A stretch of DNA of 62,573 bases from a virus (IMGVR_UViG_3300048576_000485:1-62573); one strand, 5' to 3'. Shown: positions 7,668 to 39,550, counted from the stretch's first letter. Numbers and translations are program-made. The notes: generated by a model from the letters alone, not told the origin.

Positions 7668-7834
7668 AACGGAATACCCGGAAGGTTGGTTGCTTGATGG
7701 ATTGAATAAGCAATATGAGGAGAATGATGAAAACGGTTAATTTATTTGGCAAAGTCCATGATGTCGCCGCCGACCTCGTTAAGATATTTACAATTATTAT
7801 CAGCTAATTAATAAATCAAAGGAGAGAGTTCAAA

Positions 7835-15003: not shown

Positions 15004-18000
15004 AAATATTAAGTAGAGTACCCGATTTTGAGGGTGGATTTATTACAAAGAGTTTAGAAAACTATCAAATTATTACCCGAGATAATGAAGGACACATTCT
15101 TGATTCAATTCCTTATGATATGATTGAGATAGGGGCAGAAACAGATTTAGGCACAATAAAAGATTGCACCGAAGATACCGTAATTATGTCAGATAATCGG
15201 GAATTGGACAGGTTAATGGTTAATTCCCATTTACTCAATAAAGCACTTGAAACAGGCAAGATTGAAATAGAGGAACCCGAAGAGCCTTATGTATCAGGAA
15301 CATTTGAAACTGTTTTGGGAAAAGTTGAAGTTGAAAGAGAACCAGACAGCATAAGAGCGGTTTTGTGTTCCCCTGATAAAGTTGAAGAAGAATTTTTTTA
15401 CAAGAGCATCGGCAATAAACTCTACACGGCTGAAGTCATTAAACCCTTTATCGGTAATCACCGGATTTTTTGGTATGGCGCCGAGCGAAAAAAAAGAAAT
15501 CCAAAATTATATAAAGCATTCGGGAATAGCGTAAGAATAACAAACCCGACAGTTTCAACAGGTGGAAACGCGTGGAACAAAAAAGGTGGACAGAAGCCGG
15601 GGCACAAGTATCTTGACCGGAAGGAAGTTGCGCCAGGTAAGTATATTTATCTTTATAAATTGCCTGATGGCCGTAAGCAATGGCAAAATGAACAAGGGCA
15701 AAACGTTAAACAACCGGAAGAGCAGACAGCCGAGCTGGATATGAATTTTACAAAAGGGGATATTGTAAAATTTAACGGTGAAAATTACGCAGTAAAGGAA
15801 GCTGCCGACAATTTACTTGTTCTTTCGGGGGAAGGGAAAAAGCCAATAATAGTTAATAAAACCAATTATTTACAAGAGCAGAAAGACCTACAAAATTTCA
15901 GGCAGGGGGATATTGTAAACTTTCAGGGTAAAAGTTCAAGGGTAAAGCTAACCACAAATAACTTTGTTTTGTTGGAGTATGAAGATGGAGGGCATAAGCT
16001 TTTCAGAAAAAACGTTGAACTTAGGAAGGTTTCTTCCGGAGAAATGAGAACCCCGGAAACATTTAAGAAATATGGTATAGATAAAAAGGTTGCCGATGTT
16101 ACAGGGGGTATAGTAACGTCAGATGAATATCTCATGCAAAATCATAACTATAAAAATGACCCTGAGTATAAGTTATTCCTTCAGACTTCACAGGAAACTG
16201 GGTTTGGCCGTAAGAACGATTTACGGCAGCAAAAGTTTGTTAAAACTCCCAAAGGGCATATTTCGATTGAAAGACGGTACAATCCCATAAACGATGATAT
16301 TGAAATAAGTATTGATGGAATTGATAATTATCCTGTTTACATGAACGGAAAGAAATTTATTGCAGTTGATGCAATGGAGGATGGTTACATTGTTAAGGAT
16401 AAACGGGGGGAATATTTTCATTTGCCATTTGATGAGCTGGAAAAAGAACGGCAAAAAGAGATTGAAGTTCAGGAGAAGAAAAAACTAAAGATTAGTTTTG
16501 ATGATAAAGGCAATATTGTCAGTTCCAATTGGGTGAAAAAAGATGAAAACCCTGATATGCTGGCGGAGATAAAACAGGCAAATAAAGATAAGGCAGAAGG
16601 AAGGCCCAAATTATCAATAAGAAGTAAAGTAAAGACATCTCCGGTACAAACGCAGGAAGAAAAAGACAGGGTTAAACTCGAATACGAAAGAACTATTGCG
16701 GAGAAAAAGCAAACACTTGATACACCGGCTTATATTACTTTCAGGCAGGATGCTGAAAATGAGGGTTTTAAGGTTATGCCTGATCTATTCACCGCAGAGC
16801 AAACAGCTAAAGTAAATGGCGTTGATTATAAGTTTATGCGGAAATTTGATTATAAAACGAGCGAAGTATTAACCGAACAGATAGCAGGTAAGTATAAACA
16901 AGTAGAAATTAACGGTAAAAAGTTTGACATTGAGGGAATAAAAGGGAATAAAGTACTTTACAAAGATTCCGAAGATGATTTCAATAATAGTTTACTTGGT
17001 ACTTTAGGCGTTTCTTCAATCAAGAGCATTTCCTTAGATGAGCTAAAAAAGATGAACGGCGAAGCTCTTTTTGCAAAGACCGAAGCCAACAAGGGACTTG
17101 TAAGCAAAAAAAAGCAAACAAAACAGTTAAGTATCGACTCACAAACCAAAATACCATATTGGACGGAAGTAGTAGAAGCCGATCAGATTACTCCGAGCCA
17201 TACATACAATAATGGGGAATTCGTTAAAAACAATAATTACTCGATAAAGGCAGCTCAAAACCGAGATTACAATGCTAAAGATATTGAAGTAACAGAGGGG
17301 ATAAAGAATAAACCTGATTTTGATATGTTGGATGATGTTCACCTGGCAACGTCCGGCGCACCGATTGTTAACAATAATTATGAAGTGTATGGCGGGAACA
17401 ATAGAAGTATGGGAATTATTGCGCATTATTCTTCCGGCGGGAATAAGTATAAAGAGGATCTAATTAACCATGCAGAAGAATTAGGGTTTAATCCTGATGA
17501 AATAAAGGCAATGACCAATCCTATTCTTATTCGCCGCACAGATGTTTCCGCAGAGGAGGCCAATGTTTTAGGCGGGAAAACAAATCAGAGTCTTGCAAAA
17601 GAGCAAAGCCTTGATGATACGGCAAGGGCAAAAGTTCAGCAGATTAAGCGGGACGAAAACCTTGTTAACCAAATACATGAATTATTTGCAAAAGTAAAGG
17701 ATCCCGAAATAGATACTTTCAACAAATATATTGACTCAGATAAAGGCATTGGCGATGAAATATTTAACCTGCTAAGGCGCAAGGGCATTATTAACGCCAA
17801 CGAGATAAGGAAGTACACCAACAATAACGGTAAACCAAATAAGGAAGTATTAAAAACATTAATGCGAAACTTAATATTTGGCGACACCGGAGAATTTTTT
17901 GAAAATAATCTCATTCCTGAAAATACCGTTAAGGCCCTTGATATGTCATTAGGTACGTTAATGGGATTCAATAAGGAACAAAGTTTACAGGAACCGATTA

Positions 18001-18263
18001 ACAGCGCTATTAAAATAATCGGGAAGTATCAGAACTTTAAGGATAAGTACAACAATATTGGTGAATTCCTGAATTCTGATATTGACGTCTTTTCTGGTTC
18101 CGCAGAAGTGAACGATAAGGCAAAAGCAATGATTAAGCTATTAACCGAGAGTAAGCCTACTGAAGTGAAAAATAAAATAAATAATTACAGGGCTGATATG
18201 GAAAGCACAATGTTTAGTGATGGATTAAGCCCTGAAGAAGCATTTAAAAACAATTTCCAATAA
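15000..18263 (+). CDS. large head-associated protein with DdrB-like ParB domain
   Basis: VVEADQITPSH, QNRDY, GAPIV, GGNNRSM, NPILIR (~17160-17600); GHKYLDR..GKYIYLY motif; KOW/SH3-like GDIV repeats. Confidence 0.7.
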   Translation: MKILSRVPDFEGGFITKSLENYQIITRDNEGHILDSIPYDMIEIGAETDLGTIKDCTEDTVIMSDNRELDRLMVNSHLLNKALETGKIEIEEPEEPYVSGTFETVLGKVEVEREPDSIRAVLCSPDKVEEEFFYKSIGNKLYTAEVIKPFIGNHRIFWYGAERKKRNPKLYKAFGNSVRITNPTVSTGGNAWNKKGGQKPGHKYLDRKEVAPGKYIYLYKLPDGRKQWQNEQGQNVKQPEEQTAELDMNFTKGDIVKFNGENYAVKEAADNLLVLSGEGKKPIIVNKTNYLQEQKDLQNFRQGDIVNFQGKSSRVKLTTNNFVLLEYEDGGHKLFRKNVELRKVSSGEMRTPETFKKYGIDKKVADVTGGIVTSDEYLMQNHNYKNDPEYKLFLQTSQETGFGRKNDLRQQKFVKTPKGHISIERRYNPINDDIEISIDGIDNYPVYMNGKKFIAVDAMEDGYIVKDKRGEYFHLPFDELEKERQKEIEVQEKKKLKISFDDKGNIVSSNWVKKDENPDMLAEIKQANKDKAEGRPKLSIRSKVKTSPVQTQEEKDRVKLEYERTIAEKKQTLDTPAYITFRQDAENEGFKVMPDLFTAEQTAKVNGVDYKFMRKFDYKTSEVLTEQIAGKYKQVEINGKKFDIEGIKGNKVLYKDSEDDFNNSLLGTLGVSSIKSISLDELKKMNGEALFAKTEANKGLVSKKKQTKQLSIDSQTKIPYWTEVVEADQITPSHTYNNGEFVKNNNYSIKAAQNRDYNAKDIEVTEGIKNKPDFDMLDDVHLATSGAPIVNNNYEVYGGNNRSMGIIAHYSSGGNKYKEDLINHAEELGFNPDEIKAMTNPILIRRTDVSAEEANVLGGKTNQSLAKEQSLDDTARAKVQQIKRDENLVNQIHELFAKVKDPEIDTFNKYIDSDKGIGDEIFNLLRRKGIINANEIRKYTNNNGKPNKEVLKTLMRNLIFGDTGEFFENNLIPENTVKALDMSLGTLMGFNKEQSLQEPINSAIKIIGKYQNFKDKYNNIGEFLNSDIDVFSGSAEVNDKAKAMIKLLTESKPTEVKNKINNYRADMESTMFSDGLSPEEAFKNNFQ

Positions 18264-23569: not shown

Positions 23570-24940
23570 TTGGAACACTTTTCATTTTTCGCCCCGGCAA
23601 CATTGATTAAATCGGGGCATAACGGGAAACGAAAAATAAGAGTAGGCGGACTAATCTCATCAGAGGCCAAAGATGCAGATGGTGAAATTGTTGAATCTGG
23701 AGGCATTGATTTTAATTACTTTACTTCCGGTTTTGGGAAGATAAAGTTTGAACATGACTCACCCTTGTTAAAAGAACCTGATAATATTATTGGTTTCCCT
23801 GATAAACTTATTAGAAAAGGCAAAGACACATTTTTTGAAGGAACTCTTGTTGATTTTGAAGGGGTTCCCGATGGAAGTTTAACCCCGCAGCAGAAAGCTG
23901 CAAAGTCAGCTTATGGATTATTGAAAAGTATGGAAGATCATAATGCTGATTCTCCCAGCATTCCCCAGAAAGCAGGTTGGAGCATTGAGGGAGATGTATT
24001 AGAGAGGGATAAAGCAACACGCAGAGTAAAAAAATCAATAGTAACAAATGTTGTACTTACAACCAAGCCCGTTAATACAACAACATACGCCACATTAATT
24101 AAATCATTAAATACAGGATATGAAGTAAACCCGGCTAATATGTCGGGTATTGCAGTAGCACGAAAAGAGAGTATCGAAGAAGGTAATTTAAAACATAATA
24201 AAAATACAAAAGGAGTAAAATGTATGTTTAAGAACAGACAGGAAGCATACGATCATTACCTTGCCAAAGGGATGAGCGAGGAAAAAGCTACCGAAATGGC
24301 TAACGTTTGGGAAACCGAAAGCAAAGCCGAAACCGCATTAACAGGGGCTAGAGAATCTTTGCAGAAATCCATCAAAGAAATTGAAGCAATTGAAAAAATC
24401 GAATTAGAAGCTTCAAACCCTGAAAAATTACGCAAATCCTTAAAAACCCTACAGGAAGATGAGGAAGCAGATTTGGGTGCTTATCTTGGCGAGAAGCAGC
24501 AGACAGATTTTCAGAATGCACAGAACATCGAGCAGCTTGCAAAAAAAGTTGACGGATTAGCAAAATCTTTAAGTTCTTTAGTTGCCGGTATTGATGGACT
24601 TTTGCAGTATAACGCTTATTCAAGAACCGCTATGCAGAAATCTATTTCGGCCAACACAGAAATTTCAGCCGTTACCGCTAAAGGTGTTGCTAAACTTGTT
24701 GGCGTACAGGCTGGTAAAACAGGCTTAGTTACAGATGGAATTCAGAATATGAATTATACAGATAATAATAAGCCACAACCCCCGGTTTTGAACAGACAAG
24801 AAACTTTGACTCTGTTGAAATCGCTTCAGGCAAATAATGAAATAACGGCGGATGATGTTATGAACTATGAACTTACAGGCCGTTTAACTCCGACGCATGA
24901 GGCATTGGTAAAATCAAAAGCAACCGGCGTAATAGGTTAG
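23570..24940 (+). CDS. prohead protease fused to scaffold-like region
   Basis: S.E.KD.DGE, EH, GWSIEG, VVLT.KPVN..T, then coiled coil with many xxKS sites. Confidence 0.85.
   Translation: MEHFSFFAPATLIKSGHNGKRKIRVGGLISSEAKDADGEIVESGGIDFNYFTSGFGKIKFEHDSPLLKEPDNIIGFPDKLIRKGKDTFFEGTLVDFEGVPDGSLTPQQKAAKSAYGLLKSMEDHNADSPSIPQKAGWSIEGDVLERDKATRRVKKSIVTNVVLTTKPVNTTTYATLIKSLNTGYEVNPANMSGIAVARKESIEEGNLKHNKNTKGVKCMFKNRQEAYDHYLAKGMSEEKATEMANVWETESKAETALTGARESLQKSIKEIEAIEKIELEASNPEKLRKSLKTLQEDEEADLGAYLGEKQQTDFQNAQNIEQLAKKVDGLAKSLSSLVAGIDGLLQYNAYSRTAMQKSISANTEISAVTAKGVAKLVGVQAGKTGLVTDGIQNMNYTDNNKPQPPVLNRQETLTLLKSLQANNEITADDVMNYELTGRLTPTHEALVKSKATGVIG
24224..24940 (+). CDS. putative nested scaffold protein (internal in-frame start)
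   Basis: AGGAG at 24211-24215, 8 nt before in-frame ATG, after an A-rich stretch. Confidence 0.55.
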   Translation: MFKNRQEAYDHYLAKGMSEEKATEMANVWETESKAETALTGARESLQKSIKEIEAIEKIELEASNPEKLRKSLKTLQEDEEADLGAYLGEKQQTDFQNAQNIEQLAKKVDGLAKSLSSLVAGIDGLLQYNAYSRTAMQKSISANTEISAVTAKGVAKLVGVQAGKTGLVTDGIQNMNYTDNNKPQPPVLNRQETLTLLKSLQANNEITADDVMNYELTGRLTPTHEALVKSKATGVIG

Positions 24941-24988: not shown

Positions 24989-26410
24989 ATGAACGACTTT
25001 GAATTTGGAATAGCCACTCTCGATGATATTCGGGAGTTGGGGAAATCCTTAGACAGTCTTAGTAAATCGCTTCCTACAGGTTACGCCGTTGATCCTCAAC
25101 AGATGTTCGACATGGCAGTTTCACGTAGAGAAGACATTGATTCTACTTTGACCTATTTGACGGAACAGGAATCTGTTTCTACATTTTGGAAAGCCACCAC
25201 CAAAATTAAAGCGAAAAGTACCGTTATTCAGTACAACATCGTTGAAAGCTTAGGCGGCGCAAATTTCTTCCCGGAAGGCGGAGTTCCTGAAGAATATGAC
25301 GAGTCTTTGAAAAGGGAATTTGAAAATATCCGGTATATTGGGTCATTGGGTAGAATGTCATACCCGGCTCAAATTGTTGACTCCACATTTGATACGCTTG
25401 CGGAGATAAAGAAGCTTAAGACAACAGCCATAATTCGTGCGGCAGATTATAAACTGTTTTTTGCCGACTTCAACAACAATCCAATAGAATGGAATGGCGT
25501 TTATGCCCAGGTTGCAAAAAAGGCAAAAAACTTCTCTGCTCAAGTAATTGATATGAAGGGGAAAAAATTAACCCCCGAAGCACTTAACAAAACCGGTCAG
25601 ATTATTCAAGGCAACTATGGTAATCCGGGCAACATTAGAGGTTGGATTTCTCCGCTTGCCTATGCCGATTACGCACAGGATATTCTTGATCGTAAGATTG
25701 CTGTTATCATGGGTCAGAAAATCACTGATATTACTTCTATACCGCAGACTTTCGGTTTCGGTGAAGTAAAAGGCTCATTCCTTACAAACTTGCACTTAAG
25801 ATATAAGGGGCAGACTCACATTGAGGACTTACACCCAAAATTGAATAAAGCAAGAACAGCTTTTGCTCCTACCACTAATAAACCTGCTGCGAAATTAGAT
25901 GCTAATACAGCGACCTGTACAGTTGAGGCATTAACAGGAAGTTCATTAGCGGCTGAAACCTACGATTATTGCTTCTTAGCAGGCAATATGTTCGGCGTTA
26001 GCGCTGGATTTGAAGTGAAGGGTGTTGTTGTTAATGCTGTAAATAAAAAGGTTACATTCTCATTTTCTGATAATGGTTCATTGCCAGGGCAGGAAATGCT
26101 TTTCGTAGAAGTTTACAGAAAACTTTCAAGCTCTACAGGAATTTCGGACTATAGATATATGAAAACTATTGCTCTATCTGACACAACAAAATGTGATGAT
26201 GGAACAAAAATTCCCGGCACAACAATGGGCTTCTTCTTTGATTGGGATCCGCAGGTTTACCATTTCAGACAGTTGTTACCGTTAATGTATGATCCGCTTG
26301 CAAAAGTTGATGACTCTGTAAGATGGATGCAGAAACTTTACGGAACACCGCTCGTTAAGAATCCAAACAAAATTGTGATTATCGACAATATTGGTACTAT
26401 ACCAAACTAA
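24989..26410 (+). CDS. major capsid protein (SPO1/phage K-like)
   Basis: SKS|LPTGY...SRREDID..L..LT N-terminus; QLLPLM..PLA, LYGTP...P.K...I.NIG C-terminus. Confidence 0.9.
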   Translation: MNDFEFGIATLDDIRELGKSLDSLSKSLPTGYAVDPQQMFDMAVSRREDIDSTLTYLTEQESVSTFWKATTKIKAKSTVIQYNIVESLGGANFFPEGGVPEEYDESLKREFENIRYIGSLGRMSYPAQIVDSTFDTLAEIKKLKTTAIIRAADYKLFFADFNNNPIEWNGVYAQVAKKAKNFSAQVIDMKGKKLTPEALNKTGQIIQGNYGNPGNIRGWISPLAYADYAQDILDRKIAVIMGQKITDITSIPQTFGFGEVKGSFLTNLHLRYKGQTHIEDLHPKLNKARTAFAPTTNKPAAKLDANTATCTVEALTGSSLAAETYDYCFLAGNMFGVSAGFEVKGVVVNAVNKKVTFSFSDNGSLPGQEMLFVEVYRKLSSSTGISDYRYMKTIALSDTTKCDDGTKIPGTTMGFFFDWDPQVYHFRQLLPLMYDPLAKVDDSVRWMQKLYGTPLVKNPNKIVIIDNIGTIPN

Positions 26411-27224: not shown

Positions 27225-28295
27225 ATGAAGAAATTCAAAAAAGGTATTTCGATTTCCGTTCCCCTCGACCAAGTTATTGTCGAGGGGAATGTTATTTTAT
27301 TGACGATTTACGGTGAAGATGGAAATCCCATAAATGATAATGAGAATTATCCTATTGTAAATAAACAACTCACTTACGATAGTATAACAAAAAAATATTT
27401 AGTCGAATTAACCATAAATGCAAATACCCCCGAGCAGTATTTACGTTTATATTTTGATTCGATAAATGTTGACATTGCGCCCGAATATCAGCCGGAAGAT
27501 GCTTGTCTTATCGACAATACTGTAGTTCTTCAGGAGCTCGTGCCGGTTCAATATTTTATTGACAACATTATAAATGTTGACAGTAAAATGGATATTGCTT
27601 ACAGAAAAGGGTTTATTCAGTATATCAATAATAACAGAACAGCTATAAGAGATTATTTGTTTGCAGCACAAAGCCAGCTTGAAACAGAAACACAGGTGTA
27701 TTTCACAGAGAGAGAAGTTACAGACGAAAAGAGAGACTATTATTTTGATTCCTTCCGCTCTAATCTTTGGTATTACAAAACAAGATACAACCCATTAACA
27801 GAGTTTATAAGCTTTAAGCTTAAATTTGGAGAGAATGAGTTAATTCAGATCAGTAAAGAATTTTTTGTTGTGGATAAAGATGCTGGTACAATTGAGTTTC
27901 TTCCTTCGGCTTCAGGGAACACATCAAGTCTTTACACTTTCCTACTTACCAATATGACGGGGTTATCTTACAATATACTATCAGGCGGAATTCTTGACAG
28001 AGTTCCTTGTCTATTTCATGTCCATTACAAAACAGGCATTATTCATTCAGGCAGTGACCCAGTAGAGAAAAATGCCGTAAGGTTGGCCGTCGCACAAAGA
28101 GCTCTAGTTCAGTTATTGCCCCTTGTAGATCAAGCAATGAGAAGCGCAAGCATAACAGAAGGGCTGGACGGCGTAAGTACATCGTATAACTTTAATCCAG
28201 AGAAGGTAATTAATTTCTATAAAGAAGAAGAAGCTAAATTCATTAAAAACATTAAACAAAAGTATTCACAAAATATTCACATGGTAATTGTATAA
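27225..28295 (+). CDS. head-tail adaptor/neck protein
   Basis: position; P.LFHVHY.TG, S..EGLDGVSTS. Confidence 0.65.
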   Translation: MKKFKKGISISVPLDQVIVEGNVILLTIYGEDGNPINDNENYPIVNKQLTYDSITKKYLVELTINANTPEQYLRLYFDSINVDIAPEYQPEDACLIDNTVVLQELVPVQYFIDNIINVDSKMDIAYRKGFIQYINNNRTAIRDYLFAAQSQLETETQVYFTEREVTDEKRDYYFDSFRSNLWYYKTRYNPLTEFISFKLKFGENELIQISKEFFVVDKDAGTIEFLPSASGNTSSLYTFLLTNMTGLSYNILSGGILDRVPCLFHVHYKTGIIHSGSDPVEKNAVRLAVAQRALVQLLPLVDQAMRSASITEGLDGVSTSYNFNPEKVINFYKEEEAKFIKNIKQKYSQNIHMVIV

Positions 28296-31200
28296 TGAAG
28301 GCAAAATTATTCGGCAGGGACACCACAGTTTTTGGGAAGAGTATTGGACAATTTATAAATAATCCGGAATATAACCTTGAGGGAGAGCCAAAGCGTTGGC
28401 ACAAAAAGGAATTGGGAGAGAAGAAGGGTGAATTCGGTACAATTTGGGAAGAATACAAAGGGAAGCCGAAAGAGGCAATTCAGCATTTAATAAAGGTCAA
28501 AGAAGGTGAAGTACCAGGGGCATTACATCATAAAGATATTGGGGCAATTGATCTTGTTTGGGGCAAAGAGGGTACGGGGCATAGTGATGGATTCGGACTA
28601 TCAAAAATTGCAAAATATCATCCTGAAGTTCTTGAGAATTTACAAGAAATTTTAGATGAGATGGAAGTCAAGGTCAGGAAGGACAGTAGAGTAAAATTAG
28701 AATCCCATTCACATGAAGCTTCCGTAAGCTTAAATTGGTTAGGGAAAGAAAAAACGTGGTTATTGACTGAATATAAAAAAGCCGGAAGGACGATGAACGT
28801 TTCCGGCGACTTCTTAAAAGAAGTTGGTGAGACGACTCCCTCACCCAATATCGGAAACAAAAATAAAGAAACCTTGTCGAAAAGTCAAGTTAAATCATAT
28901 AAATTATTTGGCAAATTAATTAATCTCGATGATAAGTTGAAAGAGGGGAAAGAATTTCCTTTGCAGGGAGAGCTTAACTTTCAGGGCTTGAAAATAGTAA
29001 TTGAGAACCGGAAAGGCAGTGTAAGGAAAGGCGTTGACAATGACGGCGAGGAATGGCGGACGCTAATGTTTTACCCTTACGGCTATATTAAGGGGAATAA
29101 CGAGGGGGTAGATGGAGATAAAGTCGATGTTTATATCGGCCCGAACAAAGAAAGCCGGAAAGTATTTGTTATTCACCAAAAGGATCCTGAAACTGGCAAG
29201 TATGATGAAGATAAATGTATGTTAGGCTTTAATGATGAACGACAGGCCAGAGATGCTTATTTGGCTCATTATGATGATTACCGTTTTTTAGGTGATATTG
29301 TTGAAATGGACATTGACGAGTTTAAGCAGAAATTGAAAATATACAAGGGGAAAATGATTAAATCCCTTAAGTCGGAAGGCGGCAGGTTTATTACAGAAAA
29401 TGAATTGTTAGCTCATAGATTCCCCATTAATTCAAAGGTTAGTTTTCATGGAGAAATATGGGTAGTAAAAGGTCATGGCAAATGGGGATGTTATCTTCAG
29501 TCAGAAGACGGGATTAGAACAATAAAAGGGCAGATTAATTATAAAGATTTAGAATTAATTGAACCGCTCAAAAAAGGTAAAGTTAAGGAGTATCTTTTTG
29601 AGAAGGATTCTAAACCTGTAATTGCTATTGATTTTGATGGAGTACTTCACAAATACAGCAAAGGGTATGGAGATGGTTCTTTATATGATAAATCGATGGA
29701 GGGAGTTTCGGAGGCTCTTAAGCAATTAAGTAAACAGTATGATATTGTTATTTTCACAACAAGAGAGAATACAGGGATGCCCCCTGAAATGGGAATCGAA
29801 AAGGACGAAAACACAGTATGGGGATGGTTAATAAAGAATAAACTTGATAATTATATTTATGATATAACCAACAAGAAACCGGTTGAAGCAAAGCTATTTA
29901 TTGATGATAGAGCTTTAGAGTTTAAAAATTGGAATGATGCTCTTGATAAAGTAGAAGATAAAATAAAAAAATCTATAAATTCCTCAACATTAGAAGAAGC
30001 TACAGAATACGAAGCCGAACACGAGGATTTATACCAGGAACTTAGCCGGAGATTAAAAGAAGACGGCTCAAAAATGCCAATGTCGGAAGATGAATTTTTT
30101 GAATGGATTGCTACAGAGCATTTAGGAGAGAACCCTAATTATTACAGTCTGTTAAAAAAATATGTTGAAGTAAAGAAATCGAAGGGTAACAGCTTCTTAG
30201 GACGTATCCTAAATTTATTCAAGGGTACAAAGATTAAAGATTTAATGCAGCTTGATTTATTCGGGCAGGCACACGCAGAGGGAGATTCCTTTTCAAAGGA
30301 CGGTAAACAGTACCAGGTAAAGCGAGGGGCTAACGGGGCAGTAAGAGTTCATAGAGTTGACAGTCAGCTTGATTTATTTGGGAAGAATTCGGGCAAGGTA
30401 GAGGATAAGCCCAAACCGAAGCTTACGCTTAAAACCAAAACAGCCAAAAAAAATAATGATGAACAACTTAATATGTTTCCCGGGGCAAAACAAGAAGCAA
30501 AACCCAAGCAAAATAACCCCGAACAATTGGATATTTTCAATGATAAATCGGAAGGGGTAAAGCCGAGTTCAACCCCTTCAGCAGAAGCTATTCCTTCCAT
30601 CAAGATAATTGACAAACAATCGGATAAGAAAATAAAAGCTAACCTTGCAAGTGATAAAAAGTTTGAAATATTAGCTACAAGCAAAAAAGGAGCTAAATTA
30701 ATAACAGATGGGGAAAAAGTTACGTGGATAATGCCAAAACAAATGCGTTCTGATGGAACTTTTACGGAGGGAGCGCTAAAAGCACTTGATGAAAGTACAA
30801 AAACATACCAAGATTACGTTGAAGAGCAAAAAGAAAGAGCAAACCCAAATCAAGAAATTAAACCGATCAAGGAGACAGATAATGCAATAGCGATAATAGC
30901 TTATTCTAATTATTATAATCATGTAATAGAGGATAATACAGCTCAAGTAACGTTATTGTGGGTTCCAAAAAAAATAATTAATGAACGTGGGGAAGCTCCC
31001 AAATGGTTTTTAAAGAAAAAATTGGATGAATTACAAAATCAGGATGGGCATGGATTTCATATTTTCGAGATTTCCGATATTAATATAGGGGACATCATAG
31101 AGAATGATGGTAGGAAATCGGAAATAATGGGGATTACAACCCAAACCGTGAACTTGAAAGTAATTAATAGCGAGGGGAAAGACTTGGAATATCACTTAAG

Positions 31201-34200
31201 TGCAAAGGATTTTTTTGGGCAATTAGGACGCGGGATAATAAAAAAAATCAAAGAGGGGCAACTAAATTTATACCCTCCAATGGAGGATAAACAATCGGAC
31301 AATAAGAGCGACAAAAAAGAAGAGAAACCCGATGCAAATGGCAAAGAGTTTGAGGACATAAAACCGGGGTCAAAAACAAAGTACGGTGTATTTGTTGATG
31401 AAACAAACCTAATAGGAATAAGAGCCAAAGCAGTACAAGTAATGACAAGAGCAGAGCTTGACGAGGCTACAGAGAATGGTATGAATTGGGATGATGCAAA
31501 TTCTATTGCAGGTTTTATTGAAACAAAACAAAAAGGAACACAGGTAATTGAAAAGGGTCCTAAATCAGAAAATAAAGAAGATGATTCAATAGTTGATGTT
31601 ACCGGGAAATCAGAGGATATACCGAAAGAGGAAGCCAGCGACAATAAAGAGGGAAAAGTTTTGTCATTCCATGATTTTGTAAATGAATTGATTGAAAATG
31701 ATAAATTGGAAAGACCTTCTTTGGCTGATAAAATGAAAACCGTTTACGAGACAGGAAACTCTATAGATGGTTATTCATATAATGGTTTAGTCCAAAATTA
31801 TATTGATAATTATCTTGATTACCAAGACATATCGAAAGAAGATTACTCAAAGTATGCTGATGAAGCAAGAAACAGCCAACCAAAAAGCAAAGCAGCCGAA
31901 AATCCTTTAATGGAACTTCAGGAAATGAAGCATACTAAAACGGGGGCACAGTTATTTGTTGTAAGCCTTAAGAAGTTAGTGGGCCGGGGTGAATATATGA
32001 CTTACAACAACAAAGCCAAGAGTATGGGCGGATGGTATTCGAGCTTTAAGGGAGACGGGGCAATTCCTGGGTTTATGTTTAAGGATAAGAAAACCGCAGA
32101 GGCATTTATTGAAAACTTTACTCCAAAAGGTTCAACAGAACCCGAACACCACACAGGCGACACGAAAACCGAAAACGGGCATACCTACCAGCTCAACGAA
32201 AATCACCGTTGGGAGCGGGTAGATGAAGAAAATAATTTGACAAATCCAACTGAAATTAATAATTTAGAACCAACTACTCTAAGAGGCAATGATGGACAAG
32301 CAGATCAAAGAGGCAATAAACAACCCGATAGCGGAACTGATAGAACGAGTATTGAGGGAGGAAAGCCTGATGCGGCAAACGCAGAACAACCAACAGCATC
32401 AGCAAGCGAGGACGATTCTAAGCAACCAAATGAAGGAGGATTATCAAATCCTGTCAGTAGCTCTGATGAGAATAGCGGGGACAATGGGGTACAAGCCGAG
32501 TCCACAGGAATGGGACGACAGCAAGCCGTTAGAAGTGATGGCAGAACAGATACCGGGACTTCAAAAAACAAATTGGTATCAGATTCAGCAAAGCCTAATA
32601 ATGGGAATTATGAGTTAAGAGATAAACCCCCGGTAGAATTGACTAAGGGGCAAAGGCGGGCAATTAATGATAAGGTTAAAGAGATAATTGCCAGCGGGAA
32701 AAAATCCAATGAGCTTACAGACGAAGAAAAAGACACCTTAAGACAATACACCGGTGAGGGCGGATTAAGCAGCGGCACTTCAGAAGCTTTAACACAGCAC
32801 TACACGGGTTACCAGCTCATTAACCGGATGTTTGAAGCCTTAAACGAAGCAGGGGTAAAATACAAGAACGTATTAGAACCAGCAGTCGGTTCAGGTAACT
32901 TTATCGGCCATGCACCGGGCGCAAAATGGACAGCGGTTGACATTGATAAAACCAACACCGAAGTTGCCAAACTCTTATACCCCGAAGCAAAAATATATAA
33001 TACCCCATATCAAGAATTCAAGGGGAAGGGATTTGATTTAATAATTTCAAACGTTCCTTTCCTTGAAAAAATGCCAGGAGAGAAACACGCCTTACATGAT
33101 TTCTACTTTATTCACTCATTAGACCTTGCAAAAGATAACGGAGTAGTAGCGTTTGTTACCAGCAAGGGAACGATGGATAAATTAGACTCCGCAGCCCGAA
33201 AAGAAATGATTGAAAGGGGGGATGTTTTAGGATGTTTCAGGTTGCCCAGCAGTACCTTTGAAAAGAATGCTCATACTTCGGTAATTACTGATGTTATCTT
33301 TTTGCAGAAAAGACCAGGTAAAATACCCGCAGAGTTAAGCAAACATAAAGCAGAAAATGAGTTGTTTTTAGAGTCCAGCAAAACTAATGACGGAATTCCT
33401 TTAAGTAAATATTATCAGGCCCACCCTGAAAATATTTTAGGAGATATGCAGGTAGGCAGAAATAAGTTGTATGGCGGGGTAGATTACCATATAACAGGAG
33501 AAGCAGATTTAAGCAAAATTTCTCTTCCACAGATTGACAACTATCCTACACAAAACAATGATGATGACATAAAAATCCGTTCTTCAGTTGATTTTGAAAA
33601 ATATGCAGTAGAAAATAATATCCGTTATCGTTCTTCTAATAATTCTGATTATTTTCAGAATGTTGAATATGATGCAAATAATAATGAATTATGGGTTAGG
33701 GATGGAGATTATAATTTTGATGATACAGCTATGAAAATAAAAACCTATAAGCAGGTTGAAGATGATGAACTGAAGGGGAAAATAAGGATATTGGATCAGT
33801 TAAAACAACTTGCCGACCTTAAGCAGGAGGGTATTCCAATTTCAACTGATGATGTTACTGATTTAATTCAATTATACCAGCAGAATTATAAGCACCCGGC
33901 AAATGATAAAGAGTTCAAAAAATTCTTTAAGTCAAACGATGAAATGAAATATTTTCAGGATTTGGGTAGTTATTTTGATGAAGATTTTAACCCTAAAGAA
34001 GTTTTTTCAGCACAAACTAGGTATTCCGGCAGCGGTACAATTGAGATAAAAGCAGATTCTTCATTAGCAGACAGAGCTTTTGCCAGTGAAGATTTACATG
34101 GAGTTATTGACCTTGATAGTTCAACATACTTAAAGCCGTCTGATTTTAAGGAATTAGTAAAATTAGGTTACAATATTGTTGGCCCTAATAAGCTGCAAAA

Positions 34201-37200
34201 TAACGCACTTTATTATTCCGGTAACATTTATGCGAAGATAGATAATGCAAAAAGTCTAATCGAAGATAAAATTGGCGACAAAGAAGTTCTTGAAAAGCAG
34301 CTCAAAAATTTAACTCGTGTTATCCCGGAAGAGAGAGAAATAGGCGATATTTCTTTCAAGGGTAACGAAAAGTGGATGGAGCAGTTCAGGAGTGAACTGG
34401 GTATTTATGTAAAAGAAAGAGATGGCAAACATATTTTTGAATTTAGCATGAGGGGTGTTTCACGGGACGAAAGGGAAATTTATAATAAATACCTAAATTC
34501 GCAACCATTAGCCGAATTATTCAATACAGTTAGAGATCCAATAACCGGGAATGATAAAAAAGTCCCGAAACCGGAAGCCGAACAGAAACAGCTTATTACG
34601 GAGGCCAACGAAAAACTTGAAAAAGCAAAACAAGCTATCCGTGACAAGGTAATGGCAGACCCTATTTTGTCCGGACAAATACAGTCCGCTTTTAACAGGC
34701 AGTATAATAATTATGTAAAACCAGATTATAATACGATAATAGAGACTACATTAAAGCCATTCCTTCAGGAGTTGCCGGAAGGATTTCAGTTTAGGAAAAA
34801 TCAAATTGAATGGGTTGCCAAAGCTCTTTACGAAGGCAAAGGAATAAACGCACACGATGTTGGTGGGGGGAAAACACTCGCTGCAATATTTCTTGCAAGA
34901 GTATTAAAAGCAAAGGGGATTTCAAAGAAACCTTTGTTTATGGTTCCGGCAAAGACTATACGAAAATGGGAACGTGAAATTAAGATGATTTACCCGGATG
35001 CAAATATTGTCAATTTGGGGAACCTTACAAAAGATAAAAGAAATGAAGCATTGTTTAATGTTTCCAATCAGAACGCAGATTATGTTCTGATAACACATGA
35101 AGGTTTTGAAAAGATAAAGTTGCCAAAAGATAAAGAAATGGAGTATTTTCGTCAAATAGTTGATGAGTCTATGTTTGACGAGGAAAAGAAGGGACGGGCA
35201 GCAGCTTTACAGGATAAACGTATTTCAGAATTTGAAAAAGTATTAAAAGAACAACCGGTTGATCCGAGACTTACTTTTGATAAATTGGGCTTTGATGCTT
35301 TAATTTGTGATGAAGCGCATAATTTCAAGAACATAGGGGTAAGCAGTAAATTAACAAAATGGGGAGCCGGTAAAGCTTTTGCGATGAAAGCTGGTAATGA
35401 TGGTGATGTTAAGCTTGACAGCGCAAGGAGTTATGATTTGCGTTTCAAGGCGACATATATTAATGAAATGAATAACGGTAAAAATGTGTTCCTGTTAACA
35501 GCCACACCGACACCAAATAAACCAATGGAATTATTCACAATGTTAAGACACCTTGACCCGGATTTACTTTCAAGGGAGTATAATATTCGCACGGATAGGG
35601 ATTTCGCTTCAATGTTCTTCACTTATGCCCAGGTGCAGAACCCGGAAAGACCAAAAGGGCATGACAATATTATTACAAGTATTACACACGGAATTGCATT
35701 AAGGAAAATACTTGATAGGTTTGTCGATAAACTTCCAATGCAAAAAATGAATTGGATTAAGGTTCCCGAGTCAGAAGTTGTAAAGCACTATATGCAACCG
35801 TCAGATTCAATAACAAGCATAATGAAGGATATTCAGGAAAGAACAGGAAACCTAAAGAGCAAAGTACAAAAAGGGGATGATACATTAGTTGCTATTTATG
35901 CTACAGGCAGAAATGCTGCCATTGACCCGAGATTGTATAATTCAGAACACGCAAGAGTTAAAATTCATTCAAGAACCGGGGATGTAAAGACAGATAAAAT
36001 AGAACGCTGCATTAAAACGGTTGCGGAAGTACATAAAGAGGATAAAGAAGCTAACCAGCTTATTTTCCTTGATAATTCAGGTATCCAAACCGGGGTTGAT
36101 ATTCATGGAGAAATTAAAAGAGAGCTTGCAAGGAAAGGATTCAAAGAAAACGAAATAGCAATTATTTCAGGCGATAAGATCACCAATCCGGCAACAGGCA
36201 AGGACATTAAAGCTACAGGAGATAAACTTAACACCTTAAAACAGCAGGTTGCAGATGATTTTAATGCAGGTAAAATTAAAGTAATTATCGGCACTACTAA
36301 AAGTATGGGTGAAGGAATGGATTTACAGGTAAAAACAACCGACATTCATCACCTTGACATACCTTATACACCGGCAGAAATAATTCAGAGACGGGGCAGA
36401 GGCGTAAGGCCCGGAAACGTAAACGAGAAAGTAAGGGAACACGTTTACATTCAGGGCGGAACTTTTGACAATCTGTCCTACAGCATTGTAAGCAATAAGA
36501 CAGGTTGGAATGAGGCTATGTGGGATAAAGCCGCAGCCGATGTAATAGATACCAGCGCAGATATGGCCGGGGCGATGCCTTCAGAGGATGAAATAAGAAT
36601 TGAACTTGAGCGAGATCCGGTTAAAAAGCAAAAATTAATTGTTGATTTACGCCGCAAAAAACTTGCCAGCGGATTACTTGACACAAGGCAATTACACCGC
36701 CGGGCAGAAAGTGAGTTGAAAATAAAGCAAGACGCTCTAAAAGCAATGCCCGATCAATTAAAAGAGGCCGAGGCGAATAAAGAAAAGATCAAATCATTTC
36801 AGGCCGACTTAAAAGAAATCATAAAAGACCGTGAGAAATATTATGACATAGCCCGGAAGTATAATTGGGGTTCTACAGCACCGGTTAAAGTCGATTGGAG
36901 CGATAGCGCTATGGAGTATAATCTTGATAAAGTTAAAGATGCAATGAAAGATGTTAACTGGAGAATTGATTACTTCAAACACTCAATTGAAAGACTTCCT
37001 GAATCAATTGCAAAACTTCAGACAAAATATGATAAAACAAAGGCTACAGCCGATCAGGTAGAACAAGAGGTACTTGATTTTGTTAAGCGCTATAAAATGG
37101 GCAAAGACACCCGAGACATTTACAATGATATTACCTTGCCAAAAGAAGAAAAAGACGAAGCTATTCGCCGTTTCAATGAAGAGCAGGATATGTATAAAAG

Positions 37201-37306
37201 CATTGTAATTGCAAAAATATTCGGGAAACCTTCTGTAATCTTCAAAGAACGGCCACAACTACCTGGTAGCAGAAGAATAATAAAAGTATTTGGAAAGTCC
37301 CTATAA
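28295..37306 (+). CDS. giant DarB-like polyvalent protein (BECR-type nuclease-like, InPase-like, HAD, DUF5661-like, N6-adenine MTase, SF2/SNF2 helicase)
   Basis: IGAIDLVWG..GFGLSKI..YHPE; IENRKGSVR..YGYI..DGDKVDV..DEDK; IDFDGV..FTTR..KP..IDDR; EHL.E.P.YY; EPAVGSG and SNVPF; AHDVGGGKT, DEAH, TATP, QRRGRGVR. Confidence 0.85.
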   Translation: MKAKLFGRDTTVFGKSIGQFINNPEYNLEGEPKRWHKKELGEKKGEFGTIWEEYKGKPKEAIQHLIKVKEGEVPGALHHKDIGAIDLVWGKEGTGHSDGFGLSKIAKYHPEVLENLQEILDEMEVKVRKDSRVKLESHSHEASVSLNWLGKEKTWLLTEYKKAGRTMNVSGDFLKEVGETTPSPNIGNKNKETLSKSQVKSYKLFGKLINLDDKLKEGKEFPLQGELNFQGLKIVIENRKGSVRKGVDNDGEEWRTLMFYPYGYIKGNNEGVDGDKVDVYIGPNKESRKVFVIHQKDPETGKYDEDKCMLGFNDERQARDAYLAHYDDYRFLGDIVEMDIDEFKQKLKIYKGKMIKSLKSEGGRFITENELLAHRFPINSKVSFHGEIWVVKGHGKWGCYLQSEDGIRTIKGQINYKDLELIEPLKKGKVKEYLFEKDSKPVIAIDFDGVLHKYSKGYGDGSLYDKSMEGVSEALKQLSKQYDIVIFTTRENTGMPPEMGIEKDENTVWGWLIKNKLDNYIYDITNKKPVEAKLFIDDRALEFKNWNDALDKVEDKIKKSINSSTLEEATEYEAEHEDLYQELSRRLKEDGSKMPMSEDEFFEWIATEHLGENPNYYSLLKKYVEVKKSKGNSFLGRILNLFKGTKIKDLMQLDLFGQAHAEGDSFSKDGKQYQVKRGANGAVRVHRVDSQLDLFGKNSGKVEDKPKPKLTLKTKTAKKNNDEQLNMFPGAKQEAKPKQNNPEQLDIFNDKSEGVKPSSTPSAEAIPSIKIIDKQSDKKIKANLASDKKFEILATSKKGAKLITDGEKVTWIMPKQMRSDGTFTEGALKALDESTKTYQDYVEEQKERANPNQEIKPIKETDNAIAIIAYSNYYNHVIEDNTAQVTLLWVPKKIINERGEAPKWFLKKKLDELQNQDGHGFHIFEISDINIGDIIENDGRKSEIMGITTQTVNLKVINSEGKDLEYHLSAKDFFGQLGRGIIKKIKEGQLNLYPPMEDKQSDNKSDKKEEKPDANGKEFEDIKPGSKTKYGVFVDETNLIGIRAKAVQVMTRAELDEATENGMNWDDANSIAGFIETKQKGTQVIEKGPKSENKEDDSIVDVTGKSEDIPKEEASDNKEGKVLSFHDFVNELIENDKLERPSLADKMKTVYETGNSIDGYSYNGLVQNYIDNYLDYQDISKEDYSKYADEARNSQPKSKAAENPLMELQEMKHTKTGAQLFVVSLKKLVGRGEYMTYNNKAKSMGGWYSSFKGDGAIPGFMFKDKKTAEAFIENFTPKGSTEPEHHTGDTKTENGHTYQLNENHRWERVDEENNLTNPTEINNLEPTTLRGNDGQADQRGNKQPDSGTDRTSIEGGKPDAANAEQPTASASEDDSKQPNEGGLSNPVSSSDENSGDNGVQAESTGMGRQQAVRSDGRTDTGTSKNKLVSDSAKPNNGNYELRDKPPVELTKGQRRAINDKVKEIIASGKKSNELTDEEKDTLRQYTGEGGLSSGTSEALTQHYTGYQLINRMFEALNEAGVKYKNVLEPAVGSGNFIGHAPGAKWTAVDIDKTNTEVAKLLYPEAKIYNTPYQEFKGKGFDLIISNVPFLEKMPGEKHALHDFYFIHSLDLAKDNGVVAFVTSKGTMDKLDSAARKEMIERGDVLGCFRLPSSTFEKNAHTSVITDVIFLQKRPGKIPAELSKHKAENELFLESSKTNDGIPLSKYYQAHPENILGDMQVGRNKLYGGVDYHITGEADLSKISLPQIDNYPTQNNDDDIKIRSSVDFEKYAVENNIRYRSSNNSDYFQNVEYDANNNELWVRDGDYNFDDTAMKIKTYKQVEDDELKGKIRILDQLKQLADLKQEGIPISTDDVTDLIQLYQQNYKHPANDKEFKKFFKSNDEMKYFQDLGSYFDEDFNPKEVFSAQTRYSGSGTIEIKADSSLADRAFASEDLHGVIDLDSSTYLKPSDFKELVKLGYNIVGPNKLQNNALYYSGNIYAKIDNAKSLIEDKIGDKEVLEKQLKNLTRVIPEEREIGDISFKGNEKWMEQFRSELGIYVKERDGKHIFEFSMRGVSRDEREIYNKYLNSQPLAELFNTVRDPITGNDKKVPKPEAEQKQLITEANEKLEKAKQAIRDKVMADPILSGQIQSAFNRQYNNYVKPDYNTIIETTLKPFLQELPEGFQFRKNQIEWVAKALYEGKGINAHDVGGGKTLAAIFLARVLKAKGISKKPLFMVPAKTIRKWEREIKMIYPDANIVNLGNLTKDKRNEALFNVSNQNADYVLITHEGFEKIKLPKDKEMEYFRQIVDESMFDEEKKGRAAALQDKRISEFEKVLKEQPVDPRLTFDKLGFDALICDEAHNFKNIGVSSKLTKWGAGKAFAMKAGNDGDVKLDSARSYDLRFKATYINEMNNGKNVFLLTATPTPNKPMELFTMLRHLDPDLLSREYNIRTDRDFASMFFTYAQVQNPERPKGHDNIITSITHGIALRKILDRFVDKLPMQKMNWIKVPESEVVKHYMQPSDSITSIMKDIQERTGNLKSKVQKGDDTLVAIYATGRNAAIDPRLYNSEHARVKIHSRTGDVKTDKIERCIKTVAEVHKEDKEANQLIFLDNSGIQTGVDIHGEIKRELARKGFKENEIAIISGDKITNPATGKDIKATGDKLNTLKQQVADDFNAGKIKVIIGTTKSMGEGMDLQVKTTDIHHLDIPYTPAEIIQRRGRGVRPGNVNEKVREHVYIQGGTFDNLSYSIVSNKTGWNEAMWDKAAADVIDTSADMAGAMPSEDEIRIELERDPVKKQKLIVDLRRKKLASGLLDTRQLHRRAESELKIKQDALKAMPDQLKEAEANKEKIKSFQADLKEIIKDREKYYDIARKYNWGSTAPVKVDWSDSAMEYNLDKVKDAMKDVNWRIDYFKHSIERLPESIAKLQTKYDKTKATADQVEQEVLDFVKRYKMGKDTRDIYNDITLPKEEKDEAIRRFNEEQDMYKSIVIAKIFGKPSVIFKERPQLPGSRRIIKVFGKSL

Positions 37307-37323
37307 AGGGGCTTTTCTTTTTT
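37293..37323 (+). terminator. intrinsic terminator overlapping the stop codon
   Basis: GAAAGTCCCT-ATAA-AGGGGCTTTT followed by T tract. Confidence 0.7.
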
Positions 37324-37367
37324 CTGAAAAAAAATAGACAATCTTTATTCTCCCTGCCTATTATATT
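37324..37367 (+). promoter_or_regulatory. putative late promoter 3
   Basis: same 18-bp box; TATATT 21 bp after TAGACA. Confidence 0.75.
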
Positions 37368-37394
37368 AATTCTTAAAAAATAAGGTTATGTCCG

Positions 37395-38069
37395 ATGTTT
37401 GTGACAGATGATAATTTCGGAATGTCAGTAGAGCATTACCGCCAAACATTTAAGTATTACGCCGGAAGATTATGTACCTGTATTGGGGAGAACAATGGCC
37501 AGCCAGACCCTAAATGTGGATGTGATTTAGGTTATTGGTACGACGAGCCCGAAACCATTTATGGTATTAGGCAGGATATGAAAATGAGGTACACAAACAC
37601 CCCCTCAGGTGTAATTTACAATGGGGATTGCAAAATAAGCATACCACAGTATTATCAAGGGAAATTGCAGAATGCCTATATGCTTTTAACCAAAGGGGAT
37701 GTAATAGTATTAGAAAACAAATATCGTAGAGATGCCGATATATTAAGAAGAGGGATAAGGGATAGAATTCTTGCCTTTGATGTCCATGAAGTATTAAGCG
37801 TTTCCTATAAGAATTTTAAATATCTGAAAGATTTGGATTACACCGTTGAAGACAGGACAATTGTATGGCAGGGCCGGAATGAACCGGAAGATCATTATTC
37901 CGTTGAATTTATTTGCGCACAGCAATATAAGATATGGGATAACGGCGCAAAAGACAGGGGTACAGACGAAAATCAATTACCGAGATTAGTTATCGGGGTA
38001 TTGAGGAGATATGTAAACACGGAAGAAATAAACACTATTGATTCAATCAGTTTTGAGAATTTAAAATGA
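37395..38069 (+). CDS. neck/head-closure protein
   Basis: CTC..P.PKCGC.LGY motif as in SPO1-like neck proteins; DYTV...IVW. Confidence 0.65.
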   Translation: MFVTDDNFGMSVEHYRQTFKYYAGRLCTCIGENNGQPDPKCGCDLGYWYDEPETIYGIRQDMKMRYTNTPSGVIYNGDCKISIPQYYQGKLQNAYMLLTKGDVIVLENKYRRDADILRRGIRDRILAFDVHEVLSVSYKNFKYLKDLDYTVEDRTIVWQGRNEPEDHYSVEFICAQQYKIWDNGAKDRGTDENQLPRLVIGVLRRYVNTEEINTIDSISFENLK

Positions 38070-39196
38070 AGTTTTTTGGGAAAGTAATTGGAATGTTCAA
38101 ATCATTGAAGTTAAAAAATATGCTTCAGTATAATTTATTCAATGATTCCCATAAAGAGGGAGATTTATTTACCAAAGATGGTAAACAGTACGAAGTAAAA
38201 AGAGGCGAGTCAGGGAAAACCCGAGTACATAGGGCCGATGAACAGATTAATATGTTTGAGCCTAAAAAAGAAAAGCCGAAACTTACACTTCGTACTAAAA
38301 TCAATAAACCGGCAGAGCATTTCAATATGTTAAAGCCCAAAGGAAGTCGAGCCGGAAAACAAGCAGTTGAAGAACCAGAACATATTCATAGTAAAACTAC
38401 AGAAATGTATGATAAAAAGCAGGGACGCAAATATTCAAAGGAAGAAGCAGAAAAAATACTTAATGAGTATATGGAGGAAGTCGCAGAAATGCAGGAGAGG
38501 GGAGAAATAAATAGCAAAAAGAAAAGAAGTAAAATTTATCAGAAACGTGTAGAATTAGGTTTACATGAAGTCGCCCCAATACCTGTTTCTAATACGAAAG
38601 AGGAAAAGAATGAAAAATATTCAATAGAAATCACTTCCGAATACAATTTAGGAAATCCACACGTTTATGATAATTATTGGAATTTGGATGATGCCGTAAA
38701 AGATTTACATAAAGTCCATGAATATATAGAAGATAAAGAAAAGGAAAAACATACAGCTTATATAGTAAAATACAAAAGAAATGAAGATGAGGATGGGGAT
38801 GAAGATGGGTTTATCCGTGATAATGATTGGGATGACGATAAATATGTGAAAACATATGGGGGGATTAACGAAAAAACAAATGAGATATTAAGAGAGGTTG
38901 AGGATGAATTTGGAGGAAAATATTCGGAAATTAATTTGGGAAGTAATAAAGAAGGTGAAGCGGTCACCCTGGAATTAAGAATAGCAGACCATTCAGGCAA
39001 TGACGGAAATACCAATTATAATAGTGTCAATAAGGTATTATCAATTGTAATTGCAAATAAAGATTTTACGGAAAGGTTTAAGAAATCAGAATATAGCATT
39101 CCCGATGAATATTACTTTGATGAAAATTATAGTGCGACAAAAATTATTAATTTTATAAATAAAAAAATTAAAGAGCTAAAACATTCAGTTATATAG
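38066..39196 (+). CDS. putative capsid-cargo protein sharing a module with the giant protein
   Basis: N-terminal ~75 aa paralogous to the 30190-30440 segment; C-terminal LRIADH domain of unknown function. Confidence 0.7.
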   Translation: MKFFGKVIGMFKSLKLKNMLQYNLFNDSHKEGDLFTKDGKQYEVKRGESGKTRVHRADEQINMFEPKKEKPKLTLRTKINKPAEHFNMLKPKGSRAGKQAVEEPEHIHSKTTEMYDKKQGRKYSKEEAEKILNEYMEEVAEMQERGEINSKKKRSKIYQKRVELGLHEVAPIPVSNTKEEKNEKYSIEITSEYNLGNPHVYDNYWNLDDAVKDLHKVHEYIEDKEKEKHTAYIVKYKRNEDEDGDEDGFIRDNDWDDDKYVKTYGGINEKTNEILREVEDEFGGKYSEINLGSNKEGEAVTLELRIADHSGNDGNTNYNSVNKVLSIVIANKDFTERFKKSEYSIPDEYYFDENYSATKIINFINKKIKELKHSVI

Positions 39197-39220
39197 ATTA
39201 ACTTACGGATGAGAAAATAA

Positions 39221-39550
39221 ATGGGATATTTTGTCAAGCCCTTTCAGGATAAATTTAACAAATCATATTCAACTTCTAAATTACCAAAAGGTTATGTATC
39301 TGTATTTGGCAAGCAAATAAGCCTATTCAGGAATAAGGGAAAGAAAACCACGAAATATACAGAGCCGTTTGGGAACCCAGAGAAATATGCAAAGCCTCCA
39401 AATCCTGCAACCCCGGTACAAGGCAATGAGCAGCTTGATTTATTTAAGGCGGAAAAGAATAAATTAAAAACAAACCCTTTCCCAGGGCCCAGGAAAAAGA
39501 AGAAATTAAGAAGGTTTCTAATTAAAAGAGCGAAAAGGATAAATGTATAG
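39221..39550 (+). CDS. small very basic protein with FGK tag and QLDLF
   Basis: VSVFGKQISLFR, EQLDLFKA. Confidence 0.6.
   Translation: MGYFVKPFQDKFNKSYSTSKLPKGYVSVFGKQISLFRNKGKKTTKYTEPFGNPEKYAKPPNPATPVQGNEQLDLFKAEKNKLKTNPFPGPRKKKKLRRFLIKRAKRINV

Follow-up and report, generated by a model that had tools for sequence, protein, structure and literature searches.

In bacteriophage T4, a variety of internal proteins reach the core by means of a 10-residue N-terminal capsid-targeting sequence (CTS), which the protease gp21 removes; Alt has propeptides at both ends, and the scaffold is cut into many pieces (PMC9026906, PMC3012670). The phiKZ-like and SPN3US jumbo phages use a gp21-like protease, which recognises a short motif, on many proteins of the head interior, and the propeptide regions of these hold multiple sites (PMC9026906, PMC7411985, PMC10052503). 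Phage P1 loads DarB (about 2000 aa), a DNA-modifying head protein that is co-ejected and protects DNA, in a process tied to head morphogenesis: ordered adaptors, Hdf and DarA first, are needed, and their deletion excludes the rest (PMC12810830). Finally, polyvalent proteins join several disparate activities and family-specific domains; phage members are predicted to be packaged and are found among portal, capsid and head genes, and autoproteolysis by built-in metallopeptidase domains was proposed for some of them (Iyer et al. 2017, PMC5512222). The words 'clamp' and 'linker' do not occur in the available main text of that study.

The DNA analysed here is a viral sequence of 62,573 nucleotides from an uncultured phage (IMGVR_UViG_3300048576_000485), called the window below. 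The genes that carry the motif of interest sit in its head module, with the capsid gene on one side and a virion structural protein gene on the other, and the head genes flanking the largest of them encode a portal, a MuF-like protein, a protease, a capsid and a virion structural protein. No terminase was identified among the ORFs scanned in the window. The relevant genes are:

23570-24940, plus strand: prohead protease fused to a helical scaffold-like domain (phrog_1028, E 1.1e-24)
24989-26410, plus strand: major capsid protein (phrog_752, E 3.8e-61)
28295-37306, plus strand: polyvalent (multi-enzyme) protein of 3003 aa (Pfam), the giant protein
37395-38069, plus strand: virion structural protein of 224 aa (phrog_1004, E 1.8e-6), untagged, between two tagged genes
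38066-39196, plus strand: 376-aa protein, no Pfam or PHROG family matched
38066-38107, plus strand: N-terminus of the 376-aa protein, MKFFGKVIGMFK12↓SL (MKFFGKVIGMFKS at nt 38066)
39221-39550, plus strand: 109-aa protein with FNK14↓S, a tag, QLDLF and a basic tail
39293-39334, plus strand: VFGKQISLFR, within SVFGKQISLFR (aa 27-37 of the 109-aa protein)
39431-39445: QLDLF of the 109-aa protein

Here and below the arrow marks a putative scissile bond. The initial annotation had described a shared FGK tag of about 11 residues as a candidate capsid-targeting signal, and all the peptides that it quoted are present in the translations at the places given. The shared motif is real. All eight copies of [LIVFM]FG[KR] are found in the three neighbouring proteins of 3003, 376 and 109 aa (3,488 aa together), and none occurs in the remaining 16,628 aa of the plus-strand ORFs of the window (71 ORFs of at least 40 aa, 20,116 aa); residue shuffles of the three proteins gave 0.36 motifs on average and 0 of 2000 reached eight. 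The tag could not be upheld as one 11-residue unit, however. It is composite: the conserved core is 4-5 residues long, i.e. hydrophobic-Phe-Gly-Lys, often with Ser next, and the second half (x-hydrophobic-x-hydrophobic-F) is a member of another, QLxLF-type motif family, which is found on its own as well. The bipartite form was found four times against a shuffle mean of 0.0035.

One of the eight copies, DLFGK at giant aa 694, is formed by a QLDLF motif and the GK behind it and is probably no tag. An additional copy lies outside the called genes, in a 30-codon ORF at 7715-7807 (MRRMMKTVNLFGKV...). The polyvalent protein at 15000-18263 (ddrB-ParB), beside the MuF-like gene, has no FGK tag.

The codons for F, G and K/R differ among the copies, so the conservation is at the level of the peptide. 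We therefore find it hardly credible that FGK is a DNA-level linker promoting the exchange of cassettes between cargo genes by recombination. Cassettes are indeed exchanged between close relatives: in a 96-kb relative (G001) whose capsid is about 92% identical, LPD3 takes the place of PBECR1 while the leader in front stays the same, and a single fused 952-aa LPD1 protein is the counterpart of the 376-aa and 109-aa genes, the former matching its N-terminal part and the latter its C-terminal trailer. But the left border of the exchange between the window and this relative is about 20 residues past the tag, and tags are absent from both ends of a second exchanged stretch.

In the same relative all ten strict copies fall in the two proteins orthologous to the tagged ones (29,926 aa scanned). 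A more distant set comprised 18 related loci (298 ORFs, 100,635 aa) whose capsids are only 34-48% identical to that of the window. Here 17 of the 29 copies are N-terminal, at residues 1-30 of an ORF (8.9% expected, binomial P = 2e-11), and a broader N-terminal pattern marks 15 of the 298 ORFs where 0.97 would be expected, a number reached in 0 of 300 shuffles; these counts take in orthologues (e.g. in L019, L020 and L022), so there are fewer independent lineages than the raw numbers suggest. The tag is thus portable, as had been supposed, in that a short N-terminal peptide is common to proteins with otherwise unrelated Pfam domains: Zeta_toxin, RadC, LPD1, LPD3, PBECR3, ART-PolyVal and InPase-SNF2. 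It is found at the C-terminus of a lysozyme, and FGK-x-L forms the C-terminal end of two proteins. Over the ORFs of the window the motif is restricted to the three tagged proteins, and it is conserved in diverged phages. From gene context and domain type we infer that these proteins lie in the head interior. A homologous MTase-SNF2 protein, P0003, has no tag, and some other relatives, such as the 2063-aa protein of L027, are untagged.

The leaders share more than the core, which raises the question of common descent. NNPEYxL...PKR(W/Y)H is found in the giant protein and in two L026 proteins, G..K...G.LRW.N segments occur in other leaders, and the N-terminus of the 376-aa protein is a clear paralogue of giant aa 634-745. 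All this would fit homologous leaders of one expanding family, in which FGK is structural and signals nothing. Yet a profile of the leader module, run against 1.84 billion representatives, gave two hits and nothing beyond the lineage of the window, the FGK core persists across leaders too diverged for profile detection, and it is also present at C-termini, inside scaffolds and on a lysozyme. Conservation by descent only is, in our judgement, very unlikely.

The giant protein is a polyvalent protein in the sense given above, with several disparate activities and family-specific domains detected by Pfam. Its parts are as follows:

28304-28342 (aa 4-16), plus strand: N-terminal peptide KLFGRDTTVFGKS
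28307-28342 (aa 5-16), plus strand: N-terminal double tag LFGRDTTVFGK↓S
aa 76-163: PBECR1 (Pfam, 31.8 bits, above cut-off)
28880-28930, plus strand: PBECR1/InPase joint, LSK196↓S with KLFGKLINL 9 residues downstream (aa 203-211, nt about 28901)
aa 224-348: InPase (Pfam, 151.5 bits, above cut-off)
29354-29368, plus strand: MIK356↓SL site, 8 residues past the end of the InPase domain
about aa 440-558: HAD-like (16.5 bits, below the Pfam cut-off of 27.5)
29963-29977, plus strand: IKK559↓SI site, one residue past the HAD-like module
30176-30229, plus strand: VKK628↓S, then the variant tag SFLGRILNLFKG (aa 632-643, nt about 30188)
aa 634-745: leader-like QLxLF module
30248-30538, plus strand: four QLxLF-type motifs (QLDLF, QLDLF, QLNMF, QLDIF)
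about aa 1579-1675: N6_Mtase (Pfam, 28.9 bits, above cut-off)
aa 1827-1890: DUF7516 (below the Pfam cut-off)
aa 2165-2707: SNF2/Helicase_C (SNF2-rel_dom 54.7 bits, Helicase_C 37.9 bits, above cut-offs)
37190-37303, plus strand: C-terminal trailer with MYK2968↓S, KIFGKPSVIFK (aa 2974-2984) and KVFGK3001↓SL, the last forming the protein end (KVFGKSL, aa 2997-3003)

The methyltransferase and helicase domains found here are also combined in DarB. The copies of the tag are at the termini and module joints, in agreement with the initial annotation, whose suggestion that the protein arose by fusion is also supported: judged from the alignments, it is a fusion of modules that elsewhere are separate, separately tagged genes. 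Its leader is 61% identical (aa 4-41) to that of the L026 LPD3 protein and 57% identical (aa 12-39) to that of the L026 PBECR3 protein. The segment aa 196-343 aligns to aa 2-155 of a 2125-aa L021 protein with 61% identity, and since that protein begins with MKTQIKIFGKS, an internal tag of the giant protein pairs with an N-terminal one. The HAD-like module is backed by BLAST matches to stand-alone genes in L035 and L027, and the module opened by SFLGRILNLFKG is a paralogue of the N-terminus of the 376-aa protein (45% identity, E 3.7e-24).

The joints also carry a second motif, hydrophobic-x-K-S. Seven of its eight occurrences in the giant protein are at module borders, outside the domain hits, although over the protein as a whole it is not enriched (8 versus 4.98 expected). 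Three internal tags each have a separate K↓S site 7-9 residues upstream (P = 0.0017 for random placement), and the second copy of the N-terminal double tag itself bears such a site at K15. In L018 the site equivalent to MIK356↓SL has an FGK tag behind it (GKMIKSVSIFGKK). In L027 (651 aa), L018 (1040 aa) and the 952-aa protein of G001, too, tags and K↓S sites fall on the joints between modules. A cut at KVFGK↓SL, at the very end of the giant protein, would take off just two residues.

The same motif is enriched in the protease-scaffold protein, which has 10 hydrophobic-x-K-S sites where 0.74 would be expected; none of 1000 shuffles gave as many. Nine K-S columns are kept across 16 homologues with the consensus L-x-K↓S-[LIV], and in two loci (L015 and L029) one scaffold site is itself (M/I)FGK↓SIQIL. 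In most scaffold sites, L-x stands where the tags have F-G. The protein is encoded beside the capsid gene, and its modelled N-domain matches T4 gp21 (5jbl; E 4.4e-5, probability 1.00, TM by target 0.46-0.56, in a model with a mean pLDDT of only 64), which together with the phrog_1028 match identifies a prohead protease of the gp21/assemblin fold.

The capsid begins with a likely propeptide:

24989-25066, plus strand: capsid aa 1-26, MNDFEFGIATLDDIRELGK↓SLDSLSK↓SLPTGY

K26 and L28 do not vary among 23 homologues. In 17 of the 23, hydrophobic-F-G is found near the N-terminus, some 20 residues ahead of the cut site of the same protein. For Listeria phage A511 the record annotates mature Cps as starting after ...EDALK↓SFTTGYG. 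The A511 site ALK↓SFTTGY aligns with LSK↓SLPTGY of the window capsid and LIK↓SLNTGY of the window protease, and K↓S-x-T-G-Y is common to the window, A511 and Staphylococcus phage Alsa_1. A tblastn search with the capsid matched 727 phage records, all below 60% identity, and the 25 matches listed are about 27% identical over residues 30-473. At the level of sequence this shows that the head genes are related to those of the SPO1 / Twort / A511 type, which is a statement of relatedness and not of membership of the family, the Herelleviridae.

FGK↓S fits both the scaffold consensus and the annotated A511 site, so that hydrophobic-x-K↓S is likely the site of the prohead protease, a specificity that rests on one annotated mature peptide from a distant phage (A511, capsid about 27% identical). 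Of the KS/KG sites that the initial annotation had noted beside the tag, the KS part thus stands, whereas KG falls outside the conserved site.

Is FGK(S) then a processing site only, which cuts polyproteins into enzymes while the cargo loads otherwise, e.g. by scaffold binding via other regions? The match of the tags to the scaffold consensus, the FGK↓S sites inside two scaffolds and the coincidence with module joints all speak for it. We nevertheless consider this unlikely. The extreme N-terminal copies, 17 of 29 in the relatives, are placed where a cut removes 5-10 residues and separates nothing, and FGK-x-L ends two proteins. F-G is kept even without a following Ser: Ser follows Lys in only 2 of the 8 strict copies of the window (15 of 29 in the relatives), therefore F-G-K is not simply a cleavage site. 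The distance between hydrophobic-F-G and the cut in the capsids also suggests a determinant separate from the scissile bond.

The QLxLF-type motifs show a similar restriction. Q[LIFY][DNS][LIM]F occurs eight times in the three tagged proteins and nowhere else in the window ORFs (shuffle mean 0.033), and in the 18 related loci Q[LIM][DNS][LIM]F was counted 19 times, with 0.89 expected. In the giant protein the array surrounds a short conserved basic segment, KDGKQYQVKRG..RVHR; the 376-aa protein has QYNLF and QINMF downstream of its N-terminal tag. In the relatives the motif often comes right after FG, for example in AFGKQISMF and LFGTQLDLF. The consensus for binding to the beta clamp is Q-L-x-L-F in the account of PMC4549789, where polymerases and transposases use it, and MuC of phage Mu is reported to use the clamp (PMC12867686). 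QLDLF, QLNMF, QLDIF, QINMF and QISLF fit this consensus. Here a protein may have as many as four or five of them, placed in N-terminal leaders, unlike single C-terminal clamp motifs.

FGK could accordingly be read as the front of a host-directed leader, hydrophobic-F-G-x-Q-hydrophobic-x-hydrophobic-F, which would e.g. dock injected enzymes on the beta clamp; we regard this as quite improbable. A predicted complex of two clamp copies with giant aa 627-772 gave a weak score of 0.46, the best of three controls being 0.00, with no interface reported, so that the docking motif cannot be named. In the calibration, 58 of 80 solved complexes and 2 of 110 mismatched pairs reached the mark used; with a score no higher than 0.60, only 7 of the 80 did so, along with the two mismatches that had passed. 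At least 2% of contacts are common to the three runs, and the pLDDT of the partner is at least 42; from this low value and from composition the QLxLF regions were judged to be disordered. Because clamp-peptide complexes are already solved, the weak pass may reflect memory of the model. Moreover, custom alignments and a two-copy clamp were used, which departs from the calibration set, and the clamp was a stand-in from the Ignavibacteriales MAG of a relative, on another contig than the prophage. FGK is found without QLxLF at giant aa 12-16, 204 and 2998, and QLxLF without FGK; from their distribution the two look like two motifs rather than one.

We come back to the reading of FGK as a loading label for head cargo, coupled to the prohead protease in the manner of the T4 CTS; of the readings considered it is the best, with about even odds. 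The initial interpretation of the tag as a whole is partly supported. As in the accounts of T4, a short N-terminal peptide precedes otherwise unrelated, here probably head-internal and host-directed proteins (in T4, IPI-III and Alt), it would be tied to the short cleavage motif of a prohead protease that would cut the scaffold at many copies, and the cargo set varies between related phages; the protease has, by its model, the fold of gp21. There are also differences. The CTS has no sequence similarity to the FGK tag, so that what is proposed is a CTS-like function and not membership by descent. In the T4 accounts cleavage follows Glu (L/I-x-E), whereas here it would follow Lys, at hydrophobic-x-K↓S. 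The tag, unlike the CTS, is also present at extreme C-termini and at internal joints of polyproteins, the longest having 3003 aa, and the cleavable bond does not always come next. The T4 CTS is sufficient to package foreign proteins, whereas the tag described here is known from its sequence.

Among the other systems, the phiKZ-like and SPN3US phages resemble what is proposed for this locus in the processing of many head-internal proteins at multiple sites; cleavage there is after Glu, a common label of 4-5 residues is not part of the cited descriptions, and their genomes and capsids are unrelated in sequence to those studied here. DarB is a very large DNA-modifying protein of the head, as the giant protein would be, but the P1 account contains no short tag common to all cargo. 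As to the polyvalent proteins, the giant protein and its relatives likewise join PBECR, InPase, LPD, Zeta-toxin, RadC, ART, MTase and SNF2 domains among head genes. In their case it is the head protease, rather than autoproteolysis, that the FGK label and the K↓S joints suggest as the means of processing.

In the proposed mechanism, the hydrophobic-F-G-K core would label proteins and polyprotein modules for loading into the head and delivery with the phage DNA, acting jointly with the prohead protease. This scaffold-fused enzyme of the gp21/assemblin fold would cut after Lys in hydrophobic-x-K↓S/A-hydrophobic sites, namely in the capsid propeptide, in its own linker and many times in the scaffold. 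On cargo, F-G-K would either coincide with a K↓S site (FGK↓S) or follow such a site at a distance of 7-9 residues, and we propose that each native or released module therefore starts with the same N-proximal label. The label would tether the cargo to the protease-scaffold core during closure of the shell, and cleavage would then release the modules. This would be the logic of T4 capsid targeting, with another motif, another cleavage specificity and polyprotein cargo. Cutting at K↓S, packaging of the tagged proteins and loading by the tag are all three inferred, and the phage probably carries these large multi-enzyme proteins in its head.

The two motifs may also form a two-part address, in which FGK and K↓S load and release the cargo and the QLxLF array docks the ejected enzymes on the host beta clamp. 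We put this forward tentatively and as an unlikely reading. The retained QLxLF motifs would then dock nuclease, phosphatases, methyltransferase-helicase and toxins at the entering DNA. If this is true, polyvalent proteins would be polyproteins delivered by the capsid that carry within them both a loading signal and an anchor to the host replisome.

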